Shown here piece after piece: positions 9,563 through 39,151 of a stretch of DNA of 64,000 nucleotides; positions within the stretch are counted from its first letter, which is position 1; each line of letters begins with the position of its first letter. The notes beneath the pieces were generated by a model. That model had not been told where the DNA came from. It made no database searches and saw only the letters and a list, made by a program, of their open reading frames with translations. Location: NCBI RefSeq assembly GCF_012295525.1, contig NZ_CP051167.1, positions 5,877,299 through 5,941,298 of the forward strand. Reading direction: 5' to 3'. The position numbers and the translations under genes are program-made. The stretch is from Oxynema aestuarii AP17. GTDB lineage: Bacteria; Cyanobacteriota; Cyanobacteriia; Cyanobacteriales; Laspinemataceae.

Positions 9563-10779
9563 ATGGGGAGTGGGCGATCGCCCCGGGGCTAAAGGTCGAG
9601 CGCCAATTTATCCGGATTGAAGTCGAGATCGCGCTTAAGATCGTGATTAAATCCTCACAGCCATTAACAACCGTGAAATTCATTCAAAGTTTAGCGATCG
9701 CCCTGAGTCTGGCGATTTCCCTCGGCGGTCCCGTTCCCCAGGTGGGCGCCACTTTACCCGTCGGCGCGATCGCCCAAACCAGCGCCGGAGATTTCTTAGA
9801 AAGCGCGATCGAAAAGCTCGACCGTCGCGCTTACCAGGAGGCGATCGCCGATTTGGACAAGGCGATCGAACTCGATCCCGATTTAGTCTCGGCTTATGCG
9901 GCGCGCGGGATTGCCAAACATCACCTGCGAGATTTTGGCGGGGCGATCGCCGATTTTAGCGAAGTGCTAGAACGCAATCCCAGCGATGCTGAAATGCTGA
10001 CCCTGCGAGGGATTGACTATCTTTATCTGGGGGATTACGACCGGGCGATCGCCGACTTCGACCGGGCGATCGAGAGCGATGGCGAACAGGCAGATATCTA
10101 CATGCTGCGCGCCGACGCGCGATCGCAGAAACTGGCGCTGGAACAGGCCCCGGCGCAACGCTACGATGTCGTCATCGCCGATTACGACCGCGCGATCGCC
10201 CTCGACGGCGACAATCCCCGTTACTATCAGCGACGGGGACAAACTCGGGCTCGCTTGCGACAATCGGAAGCGGCGATCGCCGATTATACCCGGGCGATCG
10301 AGCTGCAACCGACCAACGCCAACCTCTACGTGTTGCGCGGTAACGCTTACGACGATGCAGCCAACTGGCAAAACGCCCTCGAAGACTATACCCGGGCGAT
10401 CGAACTCAATCCCGATTTAGGGGATGCGTATTACAATCGCGGCGTCGCTTACCGTCGCCTCAACCAGTGCGATCGGGCGATCGCCGACTATAGCAAAGCA
10501 CTCCAACTCGACCCCGACGATTTCGGCGCCTACCTCAATCGAGGGGTATGCCACGCCAGCATCAACCAACTCGATCGCGCGATCGCCGATTACAACCGGG
10601 CGATCGAACGAAATCCCAACCTCGGCGAAGCCTATTATAACCGCGCCCTCGCCCAACAGCAGCTCAACCAAATCGAAGCCGCCCGCGCCGACTTTGAAAA
10701 AGCCGCCGATCTTTATCAACAACAAGGACAAGAAACAAAACTGCGCGACGTGCTCAACGCCCTTCGTAACTTGCCCTAG
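9559..10779 (+). CDS. TPR-repeat protein, probably exported
   Basis: About 10 TPR units ([30 protein letters not shown]…, [29 protein letters not shown]…) with a hydrophobic N-terminal segment ([16 protein letters not shown]). Its ATG overlaps the bioF stop (GTGAATGG). Confidence 0.7.
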
Positions 10780-15844: not shown

Positions 15845-15917
15845 GCCCCCATCGTCTAGAGGCCTAGGACACCTCCCTTTCACGGAGGCGACGGGGATTC
15901 GAATTCCCCTGGGGGTA
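15845..15917 (+). tRNA. tRNA-Glu (anticodon UUC), 73 nt, CCA not encoded
   Basis: GCCCCCATCGTCTAGAGGCCTAGGACACCTCCCTTTCACGGAGGCGACGGGGATTCGAATTCCCCTGGGGGTA: 7-bp acceptor stem, D-loop TCTAGAGGCC, anticodon loop CTTTCAC, T-arm GGGGATTCGAATTCCCC. Confidence 0.92.
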
Positions 15918-15940
15918 CTTGAAACATTTCAGCATCGCTA

Positions 15941-16070: not shown

Positions 16071-16143
16071 GCCCCCATCGTCTAGAGGCCTAGGACACCT
16101 CCCTTTCACGGAGGCGACGGGGATTCGAATTCCCCTGGGGGTA
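16071..16143 (+). tRNA. tRNA-Glu (anticodon UUC), second identical copy
   Basis: The 73 nt are identical to 15845..15917. Confidence 0.92.
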
Positions 16144-16157
16144 CTAAGCCACAAAAA

Positions 16158-22243: not shown

Positions 22244-22672
22244 ATGGTATTGTCGGTTAACGAGCAAACGTTTAAAAAAGAAGTTTTAGAAGCAACCTCC
22301 CTAGTTTTGGTTCATTTTTGGGCTCCGTGGTGCGGTCCGTGCCGGATGATCGAGCCGATCTTGAGTGCGTTCGAGCAAGAATGGGGAGAAAAGCTCAAGA
22401 TCGTCGGAATTAATGCAGACCTCAACTTAAAGCTCGCCAGTGCTTATCGGTTGAGTACCTTGCCCACCTTGATTCTGTTCGATCGCGGTCAAATCGTGCA
22501 TCGCGTCCAAGGATTGCAAAACCGCGACGAGTTATATGACGCCGTGCGTTCCTTCGTGACGCTCGATCGCTTTGCCCGTCGGCCCGAGTCGGTCTCGGAG
22601 GTCGCGCAGGAGGGACTCGGCGAAACGATCGCCCCCGGTTCGCTCCCCAATTTAGTCAGCACCCCGCTCTAA
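22244..22672 (+). CDS. Thioredoxin-family protein with about 35-aa C-terminal extension
   Basis: Active site WAPWCGPCR; the last about 8 codons and the stop lie inside the structured repeat (copy A). Confidence 0.8.
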   Translation: MVLSVNEQTFKKEVLEATSLVLVHFWAPWCGPCRMIEPILSAFEQEWGEKLKIVGINADLNLKLASAYRLSTLPTLILFDRGQIVHRVQGLQNRDELYDAVRSFVTLDRFARRPESVSEVAQEGLGETIAPGSLPNLVSTPL

Positions 22673-23090
22673 AGAGACGGGGCTTCGTGCCTCTCCTTTA
22701 GTAGGGGCGTTTCGCGAAACGTAGGTAGGGGCGTTTCGCGAAACGCCCCTACCCAGCCTAAACCCTTCGAGGGCTACGTTATCGGTAAGGGTTAAAGTTC
22801 CTACCTTGGGATCCGTCGCCAGTCCCCTGCTCTAGAACCAAGCCGTTAAACCGTCGTACTAGGGGTAAGACCGTGCGGTTTGGAAAGTACCGACCGATAA
22901 CATTGGCGAGGCGCTATGACGCCGTGTACTTTAGGTGGCTCCGGCTCACAGGAGCGAGGGAAAAGTGCACCTCTTTTTGCTCCCCCACGAGGGGACGGCG
23001 ATTAAAACCGCCCGTGTCGTTTTTCCTCCCTGCGCTAAAGCGACAGGGTTTCCAAACAAGAGCGAAGATTTTCCGTGAACATTAGTGCTT
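22647..23090 (+). ncRNA. Structured ~440-nt repeat, copy A; candidate novel ncRNA or MITE-like element
   Basis: About 90% identical to 37347..37775, with indels and compensatory stem changes (ccctg…caggg vs ccccg…cgggg). Contains perfect hairpins (gtaggggcgtttcgcg aaacgcccctac; agcccttcgagggct); copy A has a 28-nt internal duplication. The short internal ORFs differ by frameshifts and many nonsynonymous changes. Confidence 0.45.
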
Positions 23091-23499: not shown

Positions 23500-25569
23500 A
23501 TGGAAGCAATCTATCAGTATGCCTGGCTGATTCCAGTCCTGCCATTGGCAGGAGCGATGCTGGTCGGTCTAGGTCTGATTTCTTATAACCAAGCGACAAA
23601 TCGCCTCCGGCAAATCAACGCCATTGCGATCGTGTCCCTTTTGGGTATGTCTACAGTCTTGTCTTTCGCCTTACTGTGGAGCCAAATTCAAGGACACGAA
23701 CCGTACCTTCGCACCCTCGAATGGGCGGCAGCCGGAAATTTTCACCTGACGATGGGCTACACCATCGACCACCTGTCGGCCTTGATGCTAGCCGTAGTGA
23801 CGACGATCGCCTTTCTGGTGATGGTCTACACCGACGGTTACATGGCTCACGACGGCGGCTACGTGCGGTTTTATGCGTACTTGAGCCTATTTAGCTCTTC
23901 GATGTTGGGGTTGGTCATCAGTCCCAACTTGGTACAAGTTTATATTTTCTGGGAACTGGTCGGCATGTGTTCCTACTTGCTGATCGGGTTCTGGTACGAT
24001 CGCCAAGCGGCTGCCGATGCCTGTCAAAAAGCCTTCGTCGTCAACCGTGTCGGCGACTTCGGCTTGCTGTTGGGAATGCTCGGACTCTATTGGGCGACCG
24101 ATAGCTTTGACTTTCAAATTATCGGCGATCGCCTCCAAGACCTGGTACAGTCCGGCAACCTCGGCGCCGGAATTGCCGCGATCTTCGCGATCTTGGTCTT
24201 CCTCGGTCCAGTTGCCAAGTCTGCCCAATTCCCCTTACACGTCTGGCTTCCCGACGCGATGGAAGGTCCGACGCCGATCTCGGCCCTCATTCACGCCGCT
24301 ACCATGGTCGCCGCCGGAGTCTTCCTGATCGCCCGCATGTATCCGGTGTTCGAGCCGATCCCGGTGGTCATGGACACGATCGCCTGGACCGGATGCTTTA
24401 CCGCCTTCCTCGGCGCCACGATCGCCCTGACCCAGAACGATATCAAAAAAGGACTCGCCTATTCCACCATTTCCCAACTCGGCTACATGGTCATGGCGAT
24501 GGGGGTCGGCGCTTACGGCGCCGGACTGTTCCACCTGATGACCCACGCCTATTTCAAAGCGATGCTCTTCCTCTGCTCCGGTTCGGTCATCCACGGCATG
24601 GAAGGCGTCGTCGGTCACGACCCGATTCTCGCTCAAGACATGCGCTTGATGGGCGGCTTACGCAAATACATGCCGATTACCGCCGCCACCTTCGCGATCG
24701 GAACCCTCGCCATTTGCGGGATTCCTCCCTTCGCCGGATTCTGGTCTAAAGACGAAATCCTCGGCGCCGCCTTAGAAGCCAACCCGGCCCTGTGGCTGAT
24801 CGGCTGGCTGACCGCCGGAATGACCGCCTTCTACATGTTCCGGATGTACTTCCTCACCTTTGAAGGCCCCTTCCGAGGCAACGAAACCCACATCCGCAAA
24901 GAACTGCTCGAAGAAGCCGCCAGCATGGAAGCCGAACCCGCCCTCGCCTTCGGTCCGGGCGCGATGGATCCGAAAGAACTCGAAAGCGGTCACGACAGTC
25001 ACGGGCATCATAGTGAATTCCCGCACGAATCTCCCCTGACGATGACCCTTCCCTTGATGGCCCTCGCCGTTCCGTCGATCTTCATCGGTCTGTTGGGAAT
25101 GCCGTTTGCCAACTACTTCGAGCAATTCATTCACGCCCCCAACGAAAGCCTCGCCGAAGTCCTCGAACATGCGGAAGAATTCGAGTTGAGTCACTTCGTG
25201 GTTGAAGCGGGCGCCTCGGTCGGCATCGCCTTAATCGGCATTACCGTAGCGTCGTTGATGTACCTCAGCCGCAAGATCGATGTCGGGGCGATCGCCGACA
25301 AAATTCGCCCCCTCTACAACTTCTCGCGCAACAAATGGTACTTCGACGAAATCTATAACTTGCTCTTCGTCATCGGTTCGCGCCGCTTGGCCCGTCAAGT
25401 CCTCGAAGTGGACTATCGCATCGTCGATGGCGCCGTCAACCTCACCGGATTGATCGCCGTCATTAGCGGTGAAGGCTTGAAATACTTCGAGAACGGACGC
25501 GCCCAATTCTACGCCCTGATCGTCTTTGTCGCCGTTCTTGGGTTGGTCATTCTCTCTGGAATCACCTAA
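23500..25569 (+). CDS. ndhF: NAD(P)H-quinone oxidoreductase subunit 5 (NDH-1 NdhF, F1-like by length)
   Basis: 689 aa polytopic protein; MEAIYQYAWLIPVLPLAG start and proton-pumping antiporter-like motifs throughout. Confidence 0.9.
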   Translation: MEAIYQYAWLIPVLPLAGAMLVGLGLISYNQATNRLRQINAIAIVSLLGMSTVLSFALLWSQIQGHEPYLRTLEWAAAGNFHLTMGYTIDHLSALMLAVVTTIAFLVMVYTDGYMAHDGGYVRFYAYLSLFSSSMLGLVISPNLVQVYIFWELVGMCSYLLIGFWYDRQAAADACQKAFVVNRVGDFGLLLGMLGLYWATDSFDFQIIGDRLQDLVQSGNLGAGIAAIFAILVFLGPVAKSAQFPLHVWLPDAMEGPTPISALIHAATMVAAGVFLIARMYPVFEPIPVVMDTIAWTGCFTAFLGATIALTQNDIKKGLAYSTISQLGYMVMAMGVGAYGAGLFHLMTHAYFKAMLFLCSGSVIHGMEGVVGHDPILAQDMRLMGGLRKYMPITAATFAIGTLAICGIPPFAGFWSKDEILGAALEANPALWLIGWLTAGMTAFYMFRMYFLTFEGPFRGNETHIRKELLEEAASMEAEPALAFGPGAMDPKELESGHDSHGHHSEFPHESPLTMTLPLMALAVPSIFIGLLGMPFANYFEQFIHAPNESLAEVLEHAEEFELSHFVVEAGASVGIALIGITVASLMYLSRKIDVGAIADKIRPLYNFSRNKWYFDEIYNLLFVIGSRRLARQVLEVDYRIVDGAVNLTGLIAVISGEGLKYFENGRAQFYALIVFVAVLGLVILSGIT

Positions 25570-35009: not shown

Positions 35010-35345
35010 GTGAACACCGAATTCAAACCGTCTCCAATCCTTGCCCTGACTCTAGCAACGATCGCCTCGGGAGCGATCGCGATCCAGTCCCCCGAGGCGA
35101 TCGCCCACGCCCCGAAATATCACCAGCGCTCTGAAAGTGAATCGAGTCCCTCGACCTCCCCTAAACCCGCATCCCAGAACGGATCCGAACCCTCTCAAGA
35201 CCCGACAGCCACCGTCGCCAGCCCTCACTCACCACGGACCGAACAGGGGAACTTACACCCGGGATGGAAAGAATCGGTTTTGGGTCTCCTATTCGGCGGT
35301 TACGGTCTTTTAGTCTGGCTCAAACAGCACCTGCATCAACCATGA
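35010..35345 (+). CDS. Small Ser/Pro-rich protein with N-terminal signal and C-terminal TM (doubtful)
   Basis: ORF only; low-complexity composition; overlaps the start of the next gene. Confidence 0.25.
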   Translation: MNTEFKPSPILALTLATIASGAIAIQSPEAIAHAPKYHQRSESESSPSTSPKPASQNGSEPSQDPTATVASPHSPRTEQGNLHPGWKESVLGLLFGGYGLLVWLKQHLHQP

Positions 35346-36337
35346 ACCACTCTTGTTTCTTTCGGATCGCCCGCTCGACGGCGATCGCCCTGTTCGCCGG
35401 AACTCTTACCCTGGGATGTTCGCCACGTCCCGAACTGCAGACGTTTTATCCGGCGCCGATGCCTTCTCCCTCGGTCCCGGCGACGCCGACGCGATCGCCC
35501 GCCGAACTCGCAGCACTGACCCGCGCCCCCAACTGGCAGCAGGACAACCACGTTCACGCCCTCGGCGTCGATCCGGACAATCCCGAAGTTCTCTACATTG
35601 CCACTCATTACGGCTTGGTACGACGCAGCGAAGACGGACAGTGGTATTGGGTCGGCGACGATCGCTCGGATTATATGGGATTTGCCGTGGATCCGGGCGA
35701 TCGCGACCGCTTTTATATGAGCGGACACCCGCCGACCGGAGGGAATTTGGGATTTCGAGTCACCGAGAATCGCGGTAAAGATTGGAAAACCGAGTCGATG
35801 TCCGGAGTAGATTTCCACGCGATCGCCGTCGCCCCGGCAGATCCGAAAACGATTTACGGATGGGCGACCTCCGGAGAAGTCGGCTTTTTCGTTTCCCGCG
35901 ATCGCGGTCAAACCTGGACCGAACTGCGACCGATCGGCTTGGAAGAGATGCCCTTTAATTTAATCGTGGATCCCGCTCGCCCGGATCGGGTATTTGCTAC
36001 GACCCGGGCGGGATTGTACCAAAGCAATAATAGCGGTCGCAACTGGGCGTTAGTCCCCAACACCGACACGGCGCCGATCGTCGGTCTCGCCGTTCTCGAA
36101 GACGGGACGGAAAGTACCCTCTACGGCTATCGCTTGCTCGACTCGGCTCCGGGACTGTATCGCAGTAACAATGGCGGTCAAACTTGGGAAACCTTCGGGG
36201 AAGGCATTGAAGGCATCGTCGTGCATTTGGTGCAGGCGCCGGGAAATTCCCAAATCCTTTATGCCGCGAACCAGGACAATGGTATCTTCCAATCGAGAGA
36301 TCGCGGCGCCACCTGGACGGCGATCGCGACTCCCTAG
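35342..36337 (+). CDS. Lipoprotein with BNR/sortilin-like beta-propeller (Ycf48-like fold) repeats
   Basis: Lipobox LTLGCS; repeated S.D.G.TW motifs (SEDGQWYW, TENRGKDWK, SRDRGQTWT, SNNSGRNWA, SNNGGQTWE, SRDRGATWT). Confidence 0.6.
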   Translation: MNHSCFFRIARSTAIALFAGTLTLGCSPRPELQTFYPAPMPSPSVPATPTRSPAELAALTRAPNWQQDNHVHALGVDPDNPEVLYIATHYGLVRRSEDGQWYWVGDDRSDYMGFAVDPGDRDRFYMSGHPPTGGNLGFRVTENRGKDWKTESMSGVDFHAIAVAPADPKTIYGWATSGEVGFFVSRDRGQTWTELRPIGLEEMPFNLIVDPARPDRVFATTRAGLYQSNNSGRNWALVPNTDTAPIVGLAVLEDGTESTLYGYRLLDSAPGLYRSNNGGQTWETFGEGIEGIVVHLVQAPGNSQILYAANQDNGIFQSRDRGATWTAIATP

Positions 36338-36356: not shown

Positions 36357-36806
36357 TTAACGGGAGGGCAACAGGTCTGCTCGATCGCCGCCCCGTGCTT
36401 GCACGCGCAACGGATCGAATCCAGGTCCGGCGATCGCCCGTGCGGGATCCGCGACCGACAGGCGATCGGCAACGGCGGGGGTCAGGGATTCGGAGATCGT
36501 GGTCTGTTCGACGAACGAGAGGCGATCGCGGCGATCGGGCAATGTTACGCTCCGAGAAGTCGGGAACGGGGAACGGTCAATCTCGCATTGCCCCGCCGGA
36601 GCGAAGGTGATGCGGGGAGAAAGGCGCTGTTCGGTTGTGGCGATCGGACGGATCTCGATCCGGATCTGAAGGGAGTGGCGGGACAATGCGGGTAAAAATA
36701 GAGTGGCCAGGACGATCGCGCTCGTACACAACGTCGCCTGGTACAGATTGCTCCAACTCATCCCCTTAGACCTCCATTGGGATGGCTTCATTGCTTCCAT
36801 CCCCAA
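36357..36806 (-). CDS. Hypothetical ORF (doubtful; possible small secreted protein if it starts at the internal MSWSNLY…)
   Basis: ORF only. Confidence 0.2.
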   Translation of the reverse strand: MGMEAMKPSQWRSKGMSWSNLYQATLCTSAIVLATLFLPALSRHSLQIRIEIRPIATTEQRLSPRITFAPAGQCEIDRSPFPTSRSVTLPDRRDRLSFVEQTTISESLTPAVADRLSVADPARAIAGPGFDPLRVQARGGDRADLLPSR

Positions 36807-37346
36807 TTGTTCCGATCTCGCGCCGCTAAATTCATCGGCATTTGAATAAAGTCTTGCTCAACGTTGACCGCCATCACCGATCTCGATCGAGCGGATCGAG
36901 TCTTATTTAAGTCAGTATATAACGCCTTTCGATCGGAAATCATCCCCGATTTCTTGGATTTTTGTAAAGTTTAGATGGCGATCGACCCGCAATTTTCGAC
37001 CTCCTCCATCCAGGGCAATTACTAATCGATGGCGATCGCCCTTTTTCGGCGGCGCCCTAGTTATTTGGCCGTTATTTGGCCGTCGATGGCGCCGCGCGAT
37101 CGACGGGAGCAAGGCCCGATTCCGTGAAATGGGGTCGAGTGACTGTAGGCAGATCGGGGAACTGTTACAATATTGAGCCGCGATCGCCCCTCTCCTAGGG
37201 CCACCCCCGGCCTTGAGGAAGGGCGAATTGCCACATCTTACATAAATTAGCTAACTTGAATGAGACATCGTTCAGGTTGATGGTAAAGATGGAATATTAT
37301 ATAGAAGTCCCCTCGATCGCATGTAGAGTTAACCGACAGAGGATTA

Positions 37347-37775
37347 GGGTCAGCACCCCGCTCTAAAGAGACGGGGCTTCGTCCCTCTCCTTTCGTAGGG
37401 GCGTTTCGCGAAACGCCCCTACCCAGCCTAAGCCCTTCAAGGGCTACGTTATCGGTAAGCGTTAAAGTTCCTACCTTGGAATACGTCGCCAGTCCCCTGC
37501 TCTAGAACCAAACCGTTAAACCGTCGTCCGAGGGGTAAGACCGTGCGGTTTGGGAACTACCGACCGATAACATTGGCGAGGCGCTATGACGCCGGGCACT
37601 TTAGGTGGCTCCGGCTCACCGGAGCAAGCGAAAACTGCACCTCTTTTCGTTCCCCCCACGAGGGGACGGCGATTAAAACCGCCCGTGTCGTTTTTCCTCC
37701 CCGGTCTGAAGACACGGGGCTTCTAAACTTACCGGAGATTTCGTGAGAATCCAATGATGTCCCTCGACTCCAAAT
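37347..37775 (+). ncRNA. Structured ~440-nt repeat, copy B; ends at or overlaps the start codon of the NB-ARC gene
   Basis: See copy A; its 3' part (…ggagatttcgtgagaatcc) runs into the ATG at 37754. Confidence 0.45.
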
Positions 37776-39151
37776 ACCAGGAATTTCTCGACGCACAGGC
37801 CAAACATCACGCTTTATCTCATGCGGAATGGGAAGCCCTCAATTTAGCCGTAACAGGTCACGAAATTAGTGCCATTGCCGAACAACTGCACGTCCGACCG
37901 GAAGCGATCCGCCAGCGACTGAGTCAAATCTACCAAAAATTTAACATTCAAGGACGCGGCCCGGTCAAACTGGCGAAACTGCAAAAACTCCTGCAGCAGC
38001 GCTACCAAGAACATTGTATCGCCCGCGAAGCGGAACTAGGAAGTTGCTGCTGCGATCGCCTCGGGAGCGCCATTCCCCAGGATTGGGGCAACGCGCCCGA
38101 TCTGAGTAGCTTTTACGGACGCGAGGCGGAACTGGCCACTCTAAAGCGCTGGATCGTTGGCGATCGCTGTCGCTCGATCTCCATTTTAGGACTGGGTGGC
38201 ATCGGTAAAACCAGCTTGGCGATCGCCGCCGTCAAAGAAGTTCTCGAAGCGGGAAACTTCGACACGCTCATTTGGCGATCGCTCTCCCACGCACCGACCC
38301 CAGAAACTTTACTCGACGACCTGTTGCTGCGTTTCTATCCAGAAACCTTCGATCCGCCTGCGGCGATCGCCACCAAAATGACCCTCGTCATCGAAGGGTT
38401 GCGATCGCGGCGCTGCTTAATCGTCTTGGACGACGTCGAAACCATTTTACGCCCTGGCGACCGTCTCGGACGCTACCAAAGCGGCTACGAGGTCTACGGA
38501 CAACTGTTTCAACGCGTCGGAGAATCGCCCCATCAAAGTACCTTCCTGATTCTCTCTCAAGAAAAACTGCGAGAAATCTCCTTACTCGCCGGACCGAATC
38601 AACCGGTGCGCTTGCTCAAACTCGACGGACTCAAACTCGAAGATGCCCGACAATTGCTCCAGGAAAAACACCTGAGCGGACAACCGGAACATTGGCAAGA
38701 GTTAATCGATAATTATCGCGGCAATCCCCTCGCTTTAAAAATTGTCGCCACGACGATTCAAGAAGTGTTTGGTTGCAGCGTGGATCGCTTTATAAAATAC
38801 AAAACCTTGGTGATTAAAGACCTGTTTCTCGAAGTACTCGAACGACAATTCGAGCGTTTATCTCCCTTGGAACAAAAAATTGTTTTTTATTTAGCACAGA
38901 ATCAATATCCGCATTCTTTAGAACAAATTCACCTGCAAATGAAAACCACGAACTTGAGTCATTCCGACTTAATCGAACCGTTGGAATCCCTAAGCGGGCG
39001 ATCGCTGATCGAAAAAACCAAAAATCACGAAACCCACGAACCCCTGTTTACCCTCCAACCCGTGATTCGCAAATATGCGATCAAATACCACCTCGCCGAA
39101 ATGGAAGTCAGCGAGAGTGAGGGCGCCGCGATCGAACCGACCCGGTTATAA
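37754..39151 (+). CDS. STAND-type NTPase: N-terminal LuxR/GerE HTH plus NB-ARC domain, with no C-terminal repeat sensor
   Basis: HTH LSHAEWEALNLAVTGHEISAIAEQLHVRPEAIRQRLSQIYQKF; P-loop ILGLGGIGKTSLAIA; Walker B CLIVLDDVE; GNPLALKIV (GxP motif). Confidence 0.75.
   Translation: MMSLDSKYQEFLDAQAKHHALSHAEWEALNLAVTGHEISAIAEQLHVRPEAIRQRLSQIYQKFNIQGRGPVKLAKLQKLLQQRYQEHCIAREAELGSCCCDRLGSAIPQDWGNAPDLSSFYGREAELATLKRWIVGDRCRSISILGLGGIGKTSLAIAAVKEVLEAGNFDTLIWRSLSHAPTPETLLDDLLLRFYPETFDPPAAIATKMTLVIEGLRSRRCLIVLDDVETILRPGDRLGRYQSGYEVYGQLFQRVGESPHQSTFLILSQEKLREISLLAGPNQPVRLLKLDGLKLEDARQLLQEKHLSGQPEHWQELIDNYRGNPLALKIVATTIQEVFGCSVDRFIKYKTLVIKDLFLEVLERQFERLSPLEQKIVFYLAQNQYPHSLEQIHLQMKTTNLSHSDLIEPLESLSGRSLIEKTKNHETHEPLFTLQPVIRKYAIKYHLAEMEVSESEGAAIEPTRL

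Follow-up and report, generated by a model that had tools for sequence, protein, structure and literature searches.

The structured repeat that occurs as copies A and B in a 64,000-nt stretch of Oxynema aestuarii AP17 DNA (hereinafter the window) matches the HEARO RNA family and ends in the termini of ISC transposons. Specifically, we hold with a probability of about 80% that both copies are protein-less, non-autonomous transposons of the ISC branch of IS200/IS605, that they carry an omega-RNA gene, and that they would be mobilised in trans and would supply a guide in trans. The preliminary description of this DNA had read copy B as the structured leader of the downstream STAND regulator gene; this "structured leader" is better annotated as an orphan HEARO/omega-RNA transposon insertion.

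Two orphan HEARO copies in the window

The two copies are ~93% identical over ~400 nt, which is far above chance. A search of the whole window with Rfam gave two HEARO (RF02033) matches, and these are exactly copies A and B. The two-copy structured repeat proposed earlier is therefore real. Copy B matches the model with 107.6 bits (E=3.3e-21) and copy A with 106.4 bits at 22724-22920 (E=6e-21), each over model positions 1-211 of 211. The gathering score of RF02033 is 83, and both Oxynema copies exceed this cut-off over the full model. HEARO is the omega RNA, which serves as guide-RNA scaffold for the IscB and IsrB nucleases of ISC transposons (IS200/IS605 superfamily; Meers et al.; Hirano et al. 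2022, PMC9581776; Goltsman et al.). Given the first Rfam result, a group II intron remnant, a riboswitch, a tmRNA and RNase P were all dropped as candidates. The features of both loci are collected in Table 1.

No iscB lies downstream of either copy; copy B is followed by a LuxR/NB-ARC gene and copy A by an ndhF-like gene. A tblastn search of the 64-kb window with two cyanobacterial IscB and two TnpB proteins found no homologue of either. Because the next ORFs are not iscB and the tblastn search of the window was blank, copies A and B are orphans. HEARO copies without an ORF have already been described as a variant, and the absence of iscB makes a copy an orphan but does not exclude it from the family.

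Table 1. Coordinates of the features discussed (window numbering)
Feature	Position	Strand	Evidence
Complete iscB-less ISC element, copy B (394 nt)	37349..37742	+	CENA135 empty site; blastn breakpoints; relatives 65-68% identical over full length
iscB-less ISC element, copy A (420 nt)	22655..23074	+	A/B alignment; L053 empty site; Rfam HEARO
HEARO/omega-RNA scaffold, copy B (element positions 1-242)	37349..37590	+	Rfam RF02033
5' flank of copy B, would-be guide segment if transcribed from upstream	37329..37348	+	Analogy with IscB systems
Middle segment, copy B: hairpin GCUCCGG/CCGGAGC and second stem	37591..37667	+	Found only in the iscB-less family
3' terminus, copy B: hairpin GGCGATTAAAACCGCC (37668-37683), bulged hairpin (37699-37719), GGAG (37734-37737)	37668..37742	+	
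Target motif GTGA of copy B, native, TAM-like	37743..37746	+	Present in CENA135 empty site
Target motif GTGA of copy A	23075..23078	+	Present in L053 empty site
Thioredoxin-like ORF, last 5 codons and stop now from copy A	22244..22672	+	Pfam Thioredoxin E=5e-26
GerE/LuxR HTH and NB-ARC (STAND) gene, 465 aa	37754..39151	+	Pfam NB-ARC E=3e-13, GerE E=9e-5

Empty sites define the element ends and the target motif

Copy B is absent from the orthologous site of Oxynema sp. CENA135 (L023), which is syntenic with the window. The CENA135 empty site reads ...GAGGATTAAG/GTGAGAATCCAATGATG... (a slash marks the insertion point), and the filled site in the window is ...GAGGATTAGG/GTCAGC...394 nt...GGAGATTTC/GTGAGAATCCAATGATG; the blastn breakpoints between the two fall at 37350 and 37743. 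Similarly, copy A is absent from a metagenomic Oxynema relative (L053), where the empty site is ...CCCCAATTTA/GTGAACATTAG... and the filled site of the window is ...CCCCAATTTA/GTCAGC...GATTTTCC/GTGAACATTAG. The two empty sites are independent, the junctions are seamless, and a target-site duplication is absent at both loci. Both loci are thus polymorphic for presence and absence among close Oxynema relatives, a pattern in which insertion in the window and precise excision in the relatives look the same.

Both copies lie directly 5' of GTGA and begin with GTCA, with a 2-nt GT sliding ambiguity at each junction. Because relatives inserted at ATGA still start with GTCA, we set the boundary as GTCA.../RTGA. 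The likeness of copies A and B beyond this boundary (GTGAAC versus GTGAGA) reflects the common target motif and lies outside the element. We compared 16 independent insertion sites, 8 of iscB-less and 8 of IscB-bearing elements. The 5'-GTCA terminus and the /RTGA flank are present at all 16, the flank being ATGA at 12 and GTGA at 4. Published ISC elements have the targets GT/GA and N/ATGA, a 5'-GTCA terminus and subterminal hairpins, and make no target duplication (Kapitonov et al. 2016, PMC4810608). The commonest flank in our set, ATGAA, is the reverse complement of TTCAT, a motif common to GstTnpA and GstIscB (Meers et al.).

The same comparisons showed other differences between the strains. 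L053 has an extra 58 nt (GACGTCGATGG...GACTGTCAA) between the copy A site and ndhF, missing at window 23141, so that the copy A-ndhF intergenic region is polymorphic for a second small indel. CENA135 carries a 1.4-kb TnpB-type, IS605B-like element (L023 6811-8210) at window 35559/35560, where it splits a BNR/Sortilin-repeat gene that is whole in the window (35264-36337). O. aestuarii and CENA135 each have one IS200/IS605-type insertion that is missing from the other, less than 2 kb apart. The presence/absence polymorphism of the TnpB-type element so close by indicates that elements of the IS200/IS605 type are mobile in the Oxynema lineage.

Architecture of the element

Judged from the aligned sequences, the element consists of a 5' end with the HEARO gene, a family-specific joint of ~75 nt and a 3' end of ~75-90 nt; it keeps both transposon ends but lacks iscB. 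The hairpin at the 5' end (GTCAGCACCCCGC...GACGGGGC) belongs to the HEARO model. The middle segment is kept in five iscB-less relatives (L007, L008, L033, L036 and L015), with compensatory changes in its stem at alignment columns 105-132, and no counterpart of this ~75-nt segment was seen among the IscB-bearing elements compared.

The 3' end connects the repeat with protein-coding transposons. Specifically, the last ~90 nt of copy B align with the stretch from the iscB stop codon to RTGA in IscB-bearing elements of Scytonema, Nostoc, Trichormus and Calothrix plasmids (L025, L054, L056 and L059). The common features are, in order, the hairpin GGCGAWTAAAWYCGCC, a bulged-A hairpin, TTTCC, a purine-rich GGAG/GAGG, a T-run and the flank. 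Compensatory changes are found in 5 of the 8 pairs of the bulged hairpin (seven copies), and subterminal hairpins of the bulged type are the kind recognised by Y1 transposases (Kapitonov et al. 2016, PMC4810608). The alignment of the 3' end with the termini that follow iscB indicates that the repeat is derived from an ISC transposon and has no iscB. Seamless insertion at a 4-nt target, subterminal hairpins and termini common to protein-coding relatives place it among the ISC/IS200-IS605 elements.

Another type of 3' terminus follows iscB in L026, L055, L057 and L058, namely a long hairpin (...cattcctc...gaggaatgg...) and then GGAGGTTTAG/ATGA. This terminus is not alignable with the 3' terminus of the iscB-less family. 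The existence of two unalignable types indicates that the same HEARO/IscB core has been joined to at least two kinds of end.

Relatives in other cyanobacteria argue against an inert RNA

Relatives were sought by scanning genome and metagenome collections with the invariant 18-mer GATAACATTGGCGAGGCG; most matches arose by chance, and the true elements numbered 5 in genomes and 2 in metagenomes. The 18-mer had no match in the viral collection, where a second pattern found one iscB-less copy (L060). The iscB-less relatives come from a Calothrix MAG (L007, L008), a Richelia MAG (L015), metagenome contigs (L033, L036) and an IMG/VR contig (L060), and they are 65-68% identical to copy B over its whole 394 nt. 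Their HEARO scores of 126-158 bits fall in a range similar to that of IscB-linked cyanobacterial copies (123-155 bits); with the Oxynema copies included, the iscB-less scores span 106-158 bits, so the orphan copies retain the fold. In addition, the core of the Oxynema copies is 70-77% identical to HEAROs directly upstream of annotated iscB in Nostocales plasmids. The copy in the viral collection (L060 1883-2268, - strand, IMGVR_UViG_3300016466_000674) is an iscB-less HEARO of 146 bits on a contig classed as viral; it is flanked by co-oriented genes, and its insertion point is directly in front of the ATG that opens a 75-aa ORF.

These relatives bear on the question of whether the repeat is a selfish PATE/REP-like miniature transposon, whose RNA is inert and whose HEARO fold is kept only by the youth of the copies. 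Several features of the Oxynema copies fit such an element: iscB is missing from the window, copy A contains a 24-nt tandem duplication (22701-22724 and 22725-22748) as well as a mismatch in a conserved stem of its HEARO match, and no copies in the set score lower against the HEARO model than those of Oxynema (about 107 bits). However, the iscB-less family is 65-68% identical between genera, yet its members retain full-length HEAROs of 126-158 bits, and the 24-nt duplication falls in the SL1 region, which is dispensable for IsrB activity (Hirano et al. 2022, PMC9581776). A fold that is kept at this inter-genus identity points to selection on the RNA itself in its orphan form, not on the ends alone. 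We therefore consider an inert miniature transposon unlikely, and the conservation of the fold suggests that the RNA of iscB-less copies is under selection.

Copies A and B can be compared with several known systems. They resemble the HEARO/omega RNA (RF02033) in their full-length model match and 5'-GUCA start, but unlike the omega RNAs of IscB and IsrB they are not followed by iscB or isrB, have an extra ~75-nt hairpin segment before the 3' end, and have an enlarged SL1. They share with ISC transposons the 5'-GTCA terminus, the subterminal hairpins, the lack of duplication and the GT/GA or N/ATGA target (Kapitonov et al. 2016, PMC4810608), although ISC transposons as defined encode IscB and are 1.3-1.7 kb long, whereas copies A and B are ~0.4 kb long and encode no protein. 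Like PATE/REP-type derivatives of IS200/IS605, they are short and non-autonomous, have both Y1-type ends and are presumably moved in trans; unlike classic PATE/REP, which have paired hairpins only, they keep a complete guide-RNA gene. By the description in Hirano et al. 2022 (PMC9581776), they are also like the standalone omega RNAs of Altae-Tran et al. 2021, in which the scaffold has no adjacent nuclease gene.

Copy B is a probable insert in the LuxR/NB-ARC leader

The window does contain the quoted sequence ...ggagatttcgtgagaatcc with the ATG at 37754 behind it. Contrary to the earlier description, copy B stops short of this start codon, and 11 native nucleotides, GTGAGAATCCA, intervene; the same 11 nt are present in the CENA135 empty site. 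The CENA135 orthologue of the LuxR/NB-ARC protein has the same start and the same length (465 aa) and is 97% identical. Upstream of copy B, the next gene (36357-36806, - strand) runs divergently. Upstream-gene read-through into copy B is thus not expected, and the promoter is assumed to lie within 36807-37348 (542 nt). A scan of the + strand from 36700 to 37900 for consensus sigma-70 promoters found none, although the scan is crude and cyanobacterial promoters are often off consensus. Given this arrangement, copy B would lie between the LuxR/NB-ARC promoter region and the final 11 nt of the leader.

The position of copy B had raised the idea that it controls the LuxR/NB-ARC gene in cis, as a riboregulator or a long structured 5' UTR. 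The element lies in sense orientation 11 nt before the ATG and is strongly structured (fold z-score -4.8), and if the promoter is upstream, the element is within the leader and a side effect on expression is probable. But the orthologous leader in CENA135, which precedes a 97% identical protein, lacks the element, so that the element is not conserved in this leader. It is also found at the 3' end of the unrelated thioredoxin-like gene (copy A) and beside unrelated genes in other genera, and it matches the full model of a known guide-RNA family. A riboregulator is thus very improbable, and the idea that the element is a leader belonging to the STAND gene does not hold, since it is missing from the CENA135 orthologue and occurs in the end of the thioredoxin-like gene. 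Instead, we infer that copy B is an incidental 394-nt structured insert in the LuxR/NB-ARC leader, not a dedicated regulator. O. aestuarii (filled) and CENA135 (empty) offer a natural test of how a guide-RNA insert 11 nt before a start codon affects expression.

A further contig with sequence from this region, L061 (Logan SRR35642146, 6,968 nt), encodes a kinase product identical to that of the window. The contig begins inside the LuxR/NB-ARC gene, and the copy B region lies off the contig.

Copy A supplies the end of a thioredoxin-like gene

Copy A lies between the thioredoxin-like ORF and an ndhF-like ORF (23500-25569). The distance of ~400 bp to ndhF given earlier agrees with the 425 nt that separate the end of copy A from the ndhF-like ORF. 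The product of the thioredoxin-like ORF is 100% identical to an O. aestuarii thioredoxin, and its C-terminus is read from the element. Specifically, the protein in the window ends in ...PNLVSTPL, and the protein of the L053 empty allele ends in ...PNLVNISV. For an empty allele, the window's own flank predicts ...PNLVNISA, which is one residue off the L053 terminus.

Insertions favour start codons and the sense orientation

In agreement with the preliminary description, copies A and B share the + strand with the genes that follow them. The bias in orientation or position that the description had named as a check among further copies also exists: the element is co-oriented with the next downstream gene at 12 of the 16 insertion sites (one-sided binomial ~0.04), and at 6 of the 16 a real co-oriented gene begins with the flanking ATG. 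The start-codon sites precede ORFs of 151 aa (L033), 100 aa (L015) and 75 aa (L060) and annotated coding sequences of 88 aa (L026), 82 aa (L055) and 328 aa (parB; L056). Copy B itself is a near miss of this pattern. Its flanking GTG opens a four-codon frame (VRIQ), the TGA stop of which overlaps the ATG at 37754.

At the parB site (L056 1266-2868, Trichormus variabilis ATCC 29413 plasmid C), parA and parB flank a complete IscB element. The parA frame extends 28 nt into the HEARO, and the ATG of parB belongs to the ATGA target right after the element. This arrangement suggests insertion at an ATGA stop-start overlap within an operon.

Position and orientation biases are explained by target choice and host transcription, not by riboregulation. 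The position bias arises because the RTGA target contains a potential start codon. The sense-orientation bias arises because the omega RNA needs transcription from outside, which favours transcribed units (Meers et al.). The omega RNA of IscB elements has also been reported to be co-oriented with the upstream gene (Meers et al.). Intragenic insertions are presumably lost.

The same biases could come from a mobile element that brings an outward-facing promoter to the downstream gene, as the element shares the direction of that gene at 12 of 16 sites and directly adjoins its start codon at 6. Against promoter delivery, the crude consensus sigma-70 scan of the + strand (36700-37900) found no promoter, these elements depend on incoming host transcription according to published work (Meers et al.), and the insertions between parA and parB or in a gene end (L056, copy A) fit read-through. 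We regard promoter delivery as highly unlikely. The earlier choice between a riboregulator and a mobile promoter element is thus kept in one respect, that the repeat is a mobile structured RNA; the riboregulator is contradicted by the empty orthologous leader and by the occurrence of the element at unrelated loci, and promoter delivery gains no support from the crude + strand scan and conflicts with published findings on these elements.

Returning to target choice and host transcription, GGAG or GAGG is found 4-8 nt from the element end at most sites, and it could serve as a ribosome-binding site for the downstream ATG. We tentatively raise the possibility, which we think may well not hold, that the ISC/HEARO family is adapted to sense docking at start codons or ATGA overlaps. 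RTGA would then act as a start codon and GGAG/GAGG as a replacement ribosome-binding site, so that the guide RNA would be made without silencing the downstream gene; the iscB-less form would be a portable leader and guide module conserved between genera, not a product of decay. Start-codon docking is not stated in Kapitonov et al. 2016 (PMC4810608) or Meers et al., and the original HEARO paper (Weinberg et al. 2009) may have it. That one third of the sampled insertions lie exactly on start codons suggests a possible route to host transcription that spares the downstream gene.

Proposed mechanism

Earlier publications already cover the RNA family, the transposon family, the target motif, the reliance on host transcription and the occurrence of standalone omega RNAs. 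Applied to copies A and B, these findings lead to the following model. A Y1 (TnpA) transposase encoded elsewhere would move the element in trans. The element would have no promoter of its own, and its RNA would come from host-side transcription, which would enter copy A from the thioredoxin-like gene and would start, for copy B, in the LuxR gene's own promoter region (within the 542-nt region upstream). IscB systems have their guide on the 5' side of the scaffold, beyond the transposon end (Meers et al.; Hirano et al. 2022, PMC9581776), and the transcripts of copies A and B would likewise carry the 5' flank as guide.

An IscB encoded elsewhere would then be directed to cut the empty allele, that is, the flank followed by GTGA (for copy B, ACAGAGGATTAGG/GTGAG). 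Repair after cleavage would copy the element back and lead to its retention. Retention by cleavage of the empty allele has been shown for IscB elements (Meers et al.), and a role in trans has been proposed for the standalone omega RNAs of Altae-Tran et al. 2021 (cited by Hirano et al. 2022, PMC9581776). By analogy with these systems, we infer a trans-guide step that would engage an IscB partner in O. aestuarii.

Other features of the window

The window contains two arrays with a 102-nt period. The array at 635-2171 has 13 copies that are about 90% identical, and the array at 9801-10619 consists of 8 degenerate, GCGATCGC-rich copies. A period of 102 nt corresponds to repeats of 34 residues, which suggests coding repeats of the TPR type. 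Two tRNA-Glu(UUC) genes (15845-15918 and 16071-16144, + strand) lie 226 nt apart and have equal Rfam tRNA scores; the 83-nt stretches spanning the two genes are 98% identical.
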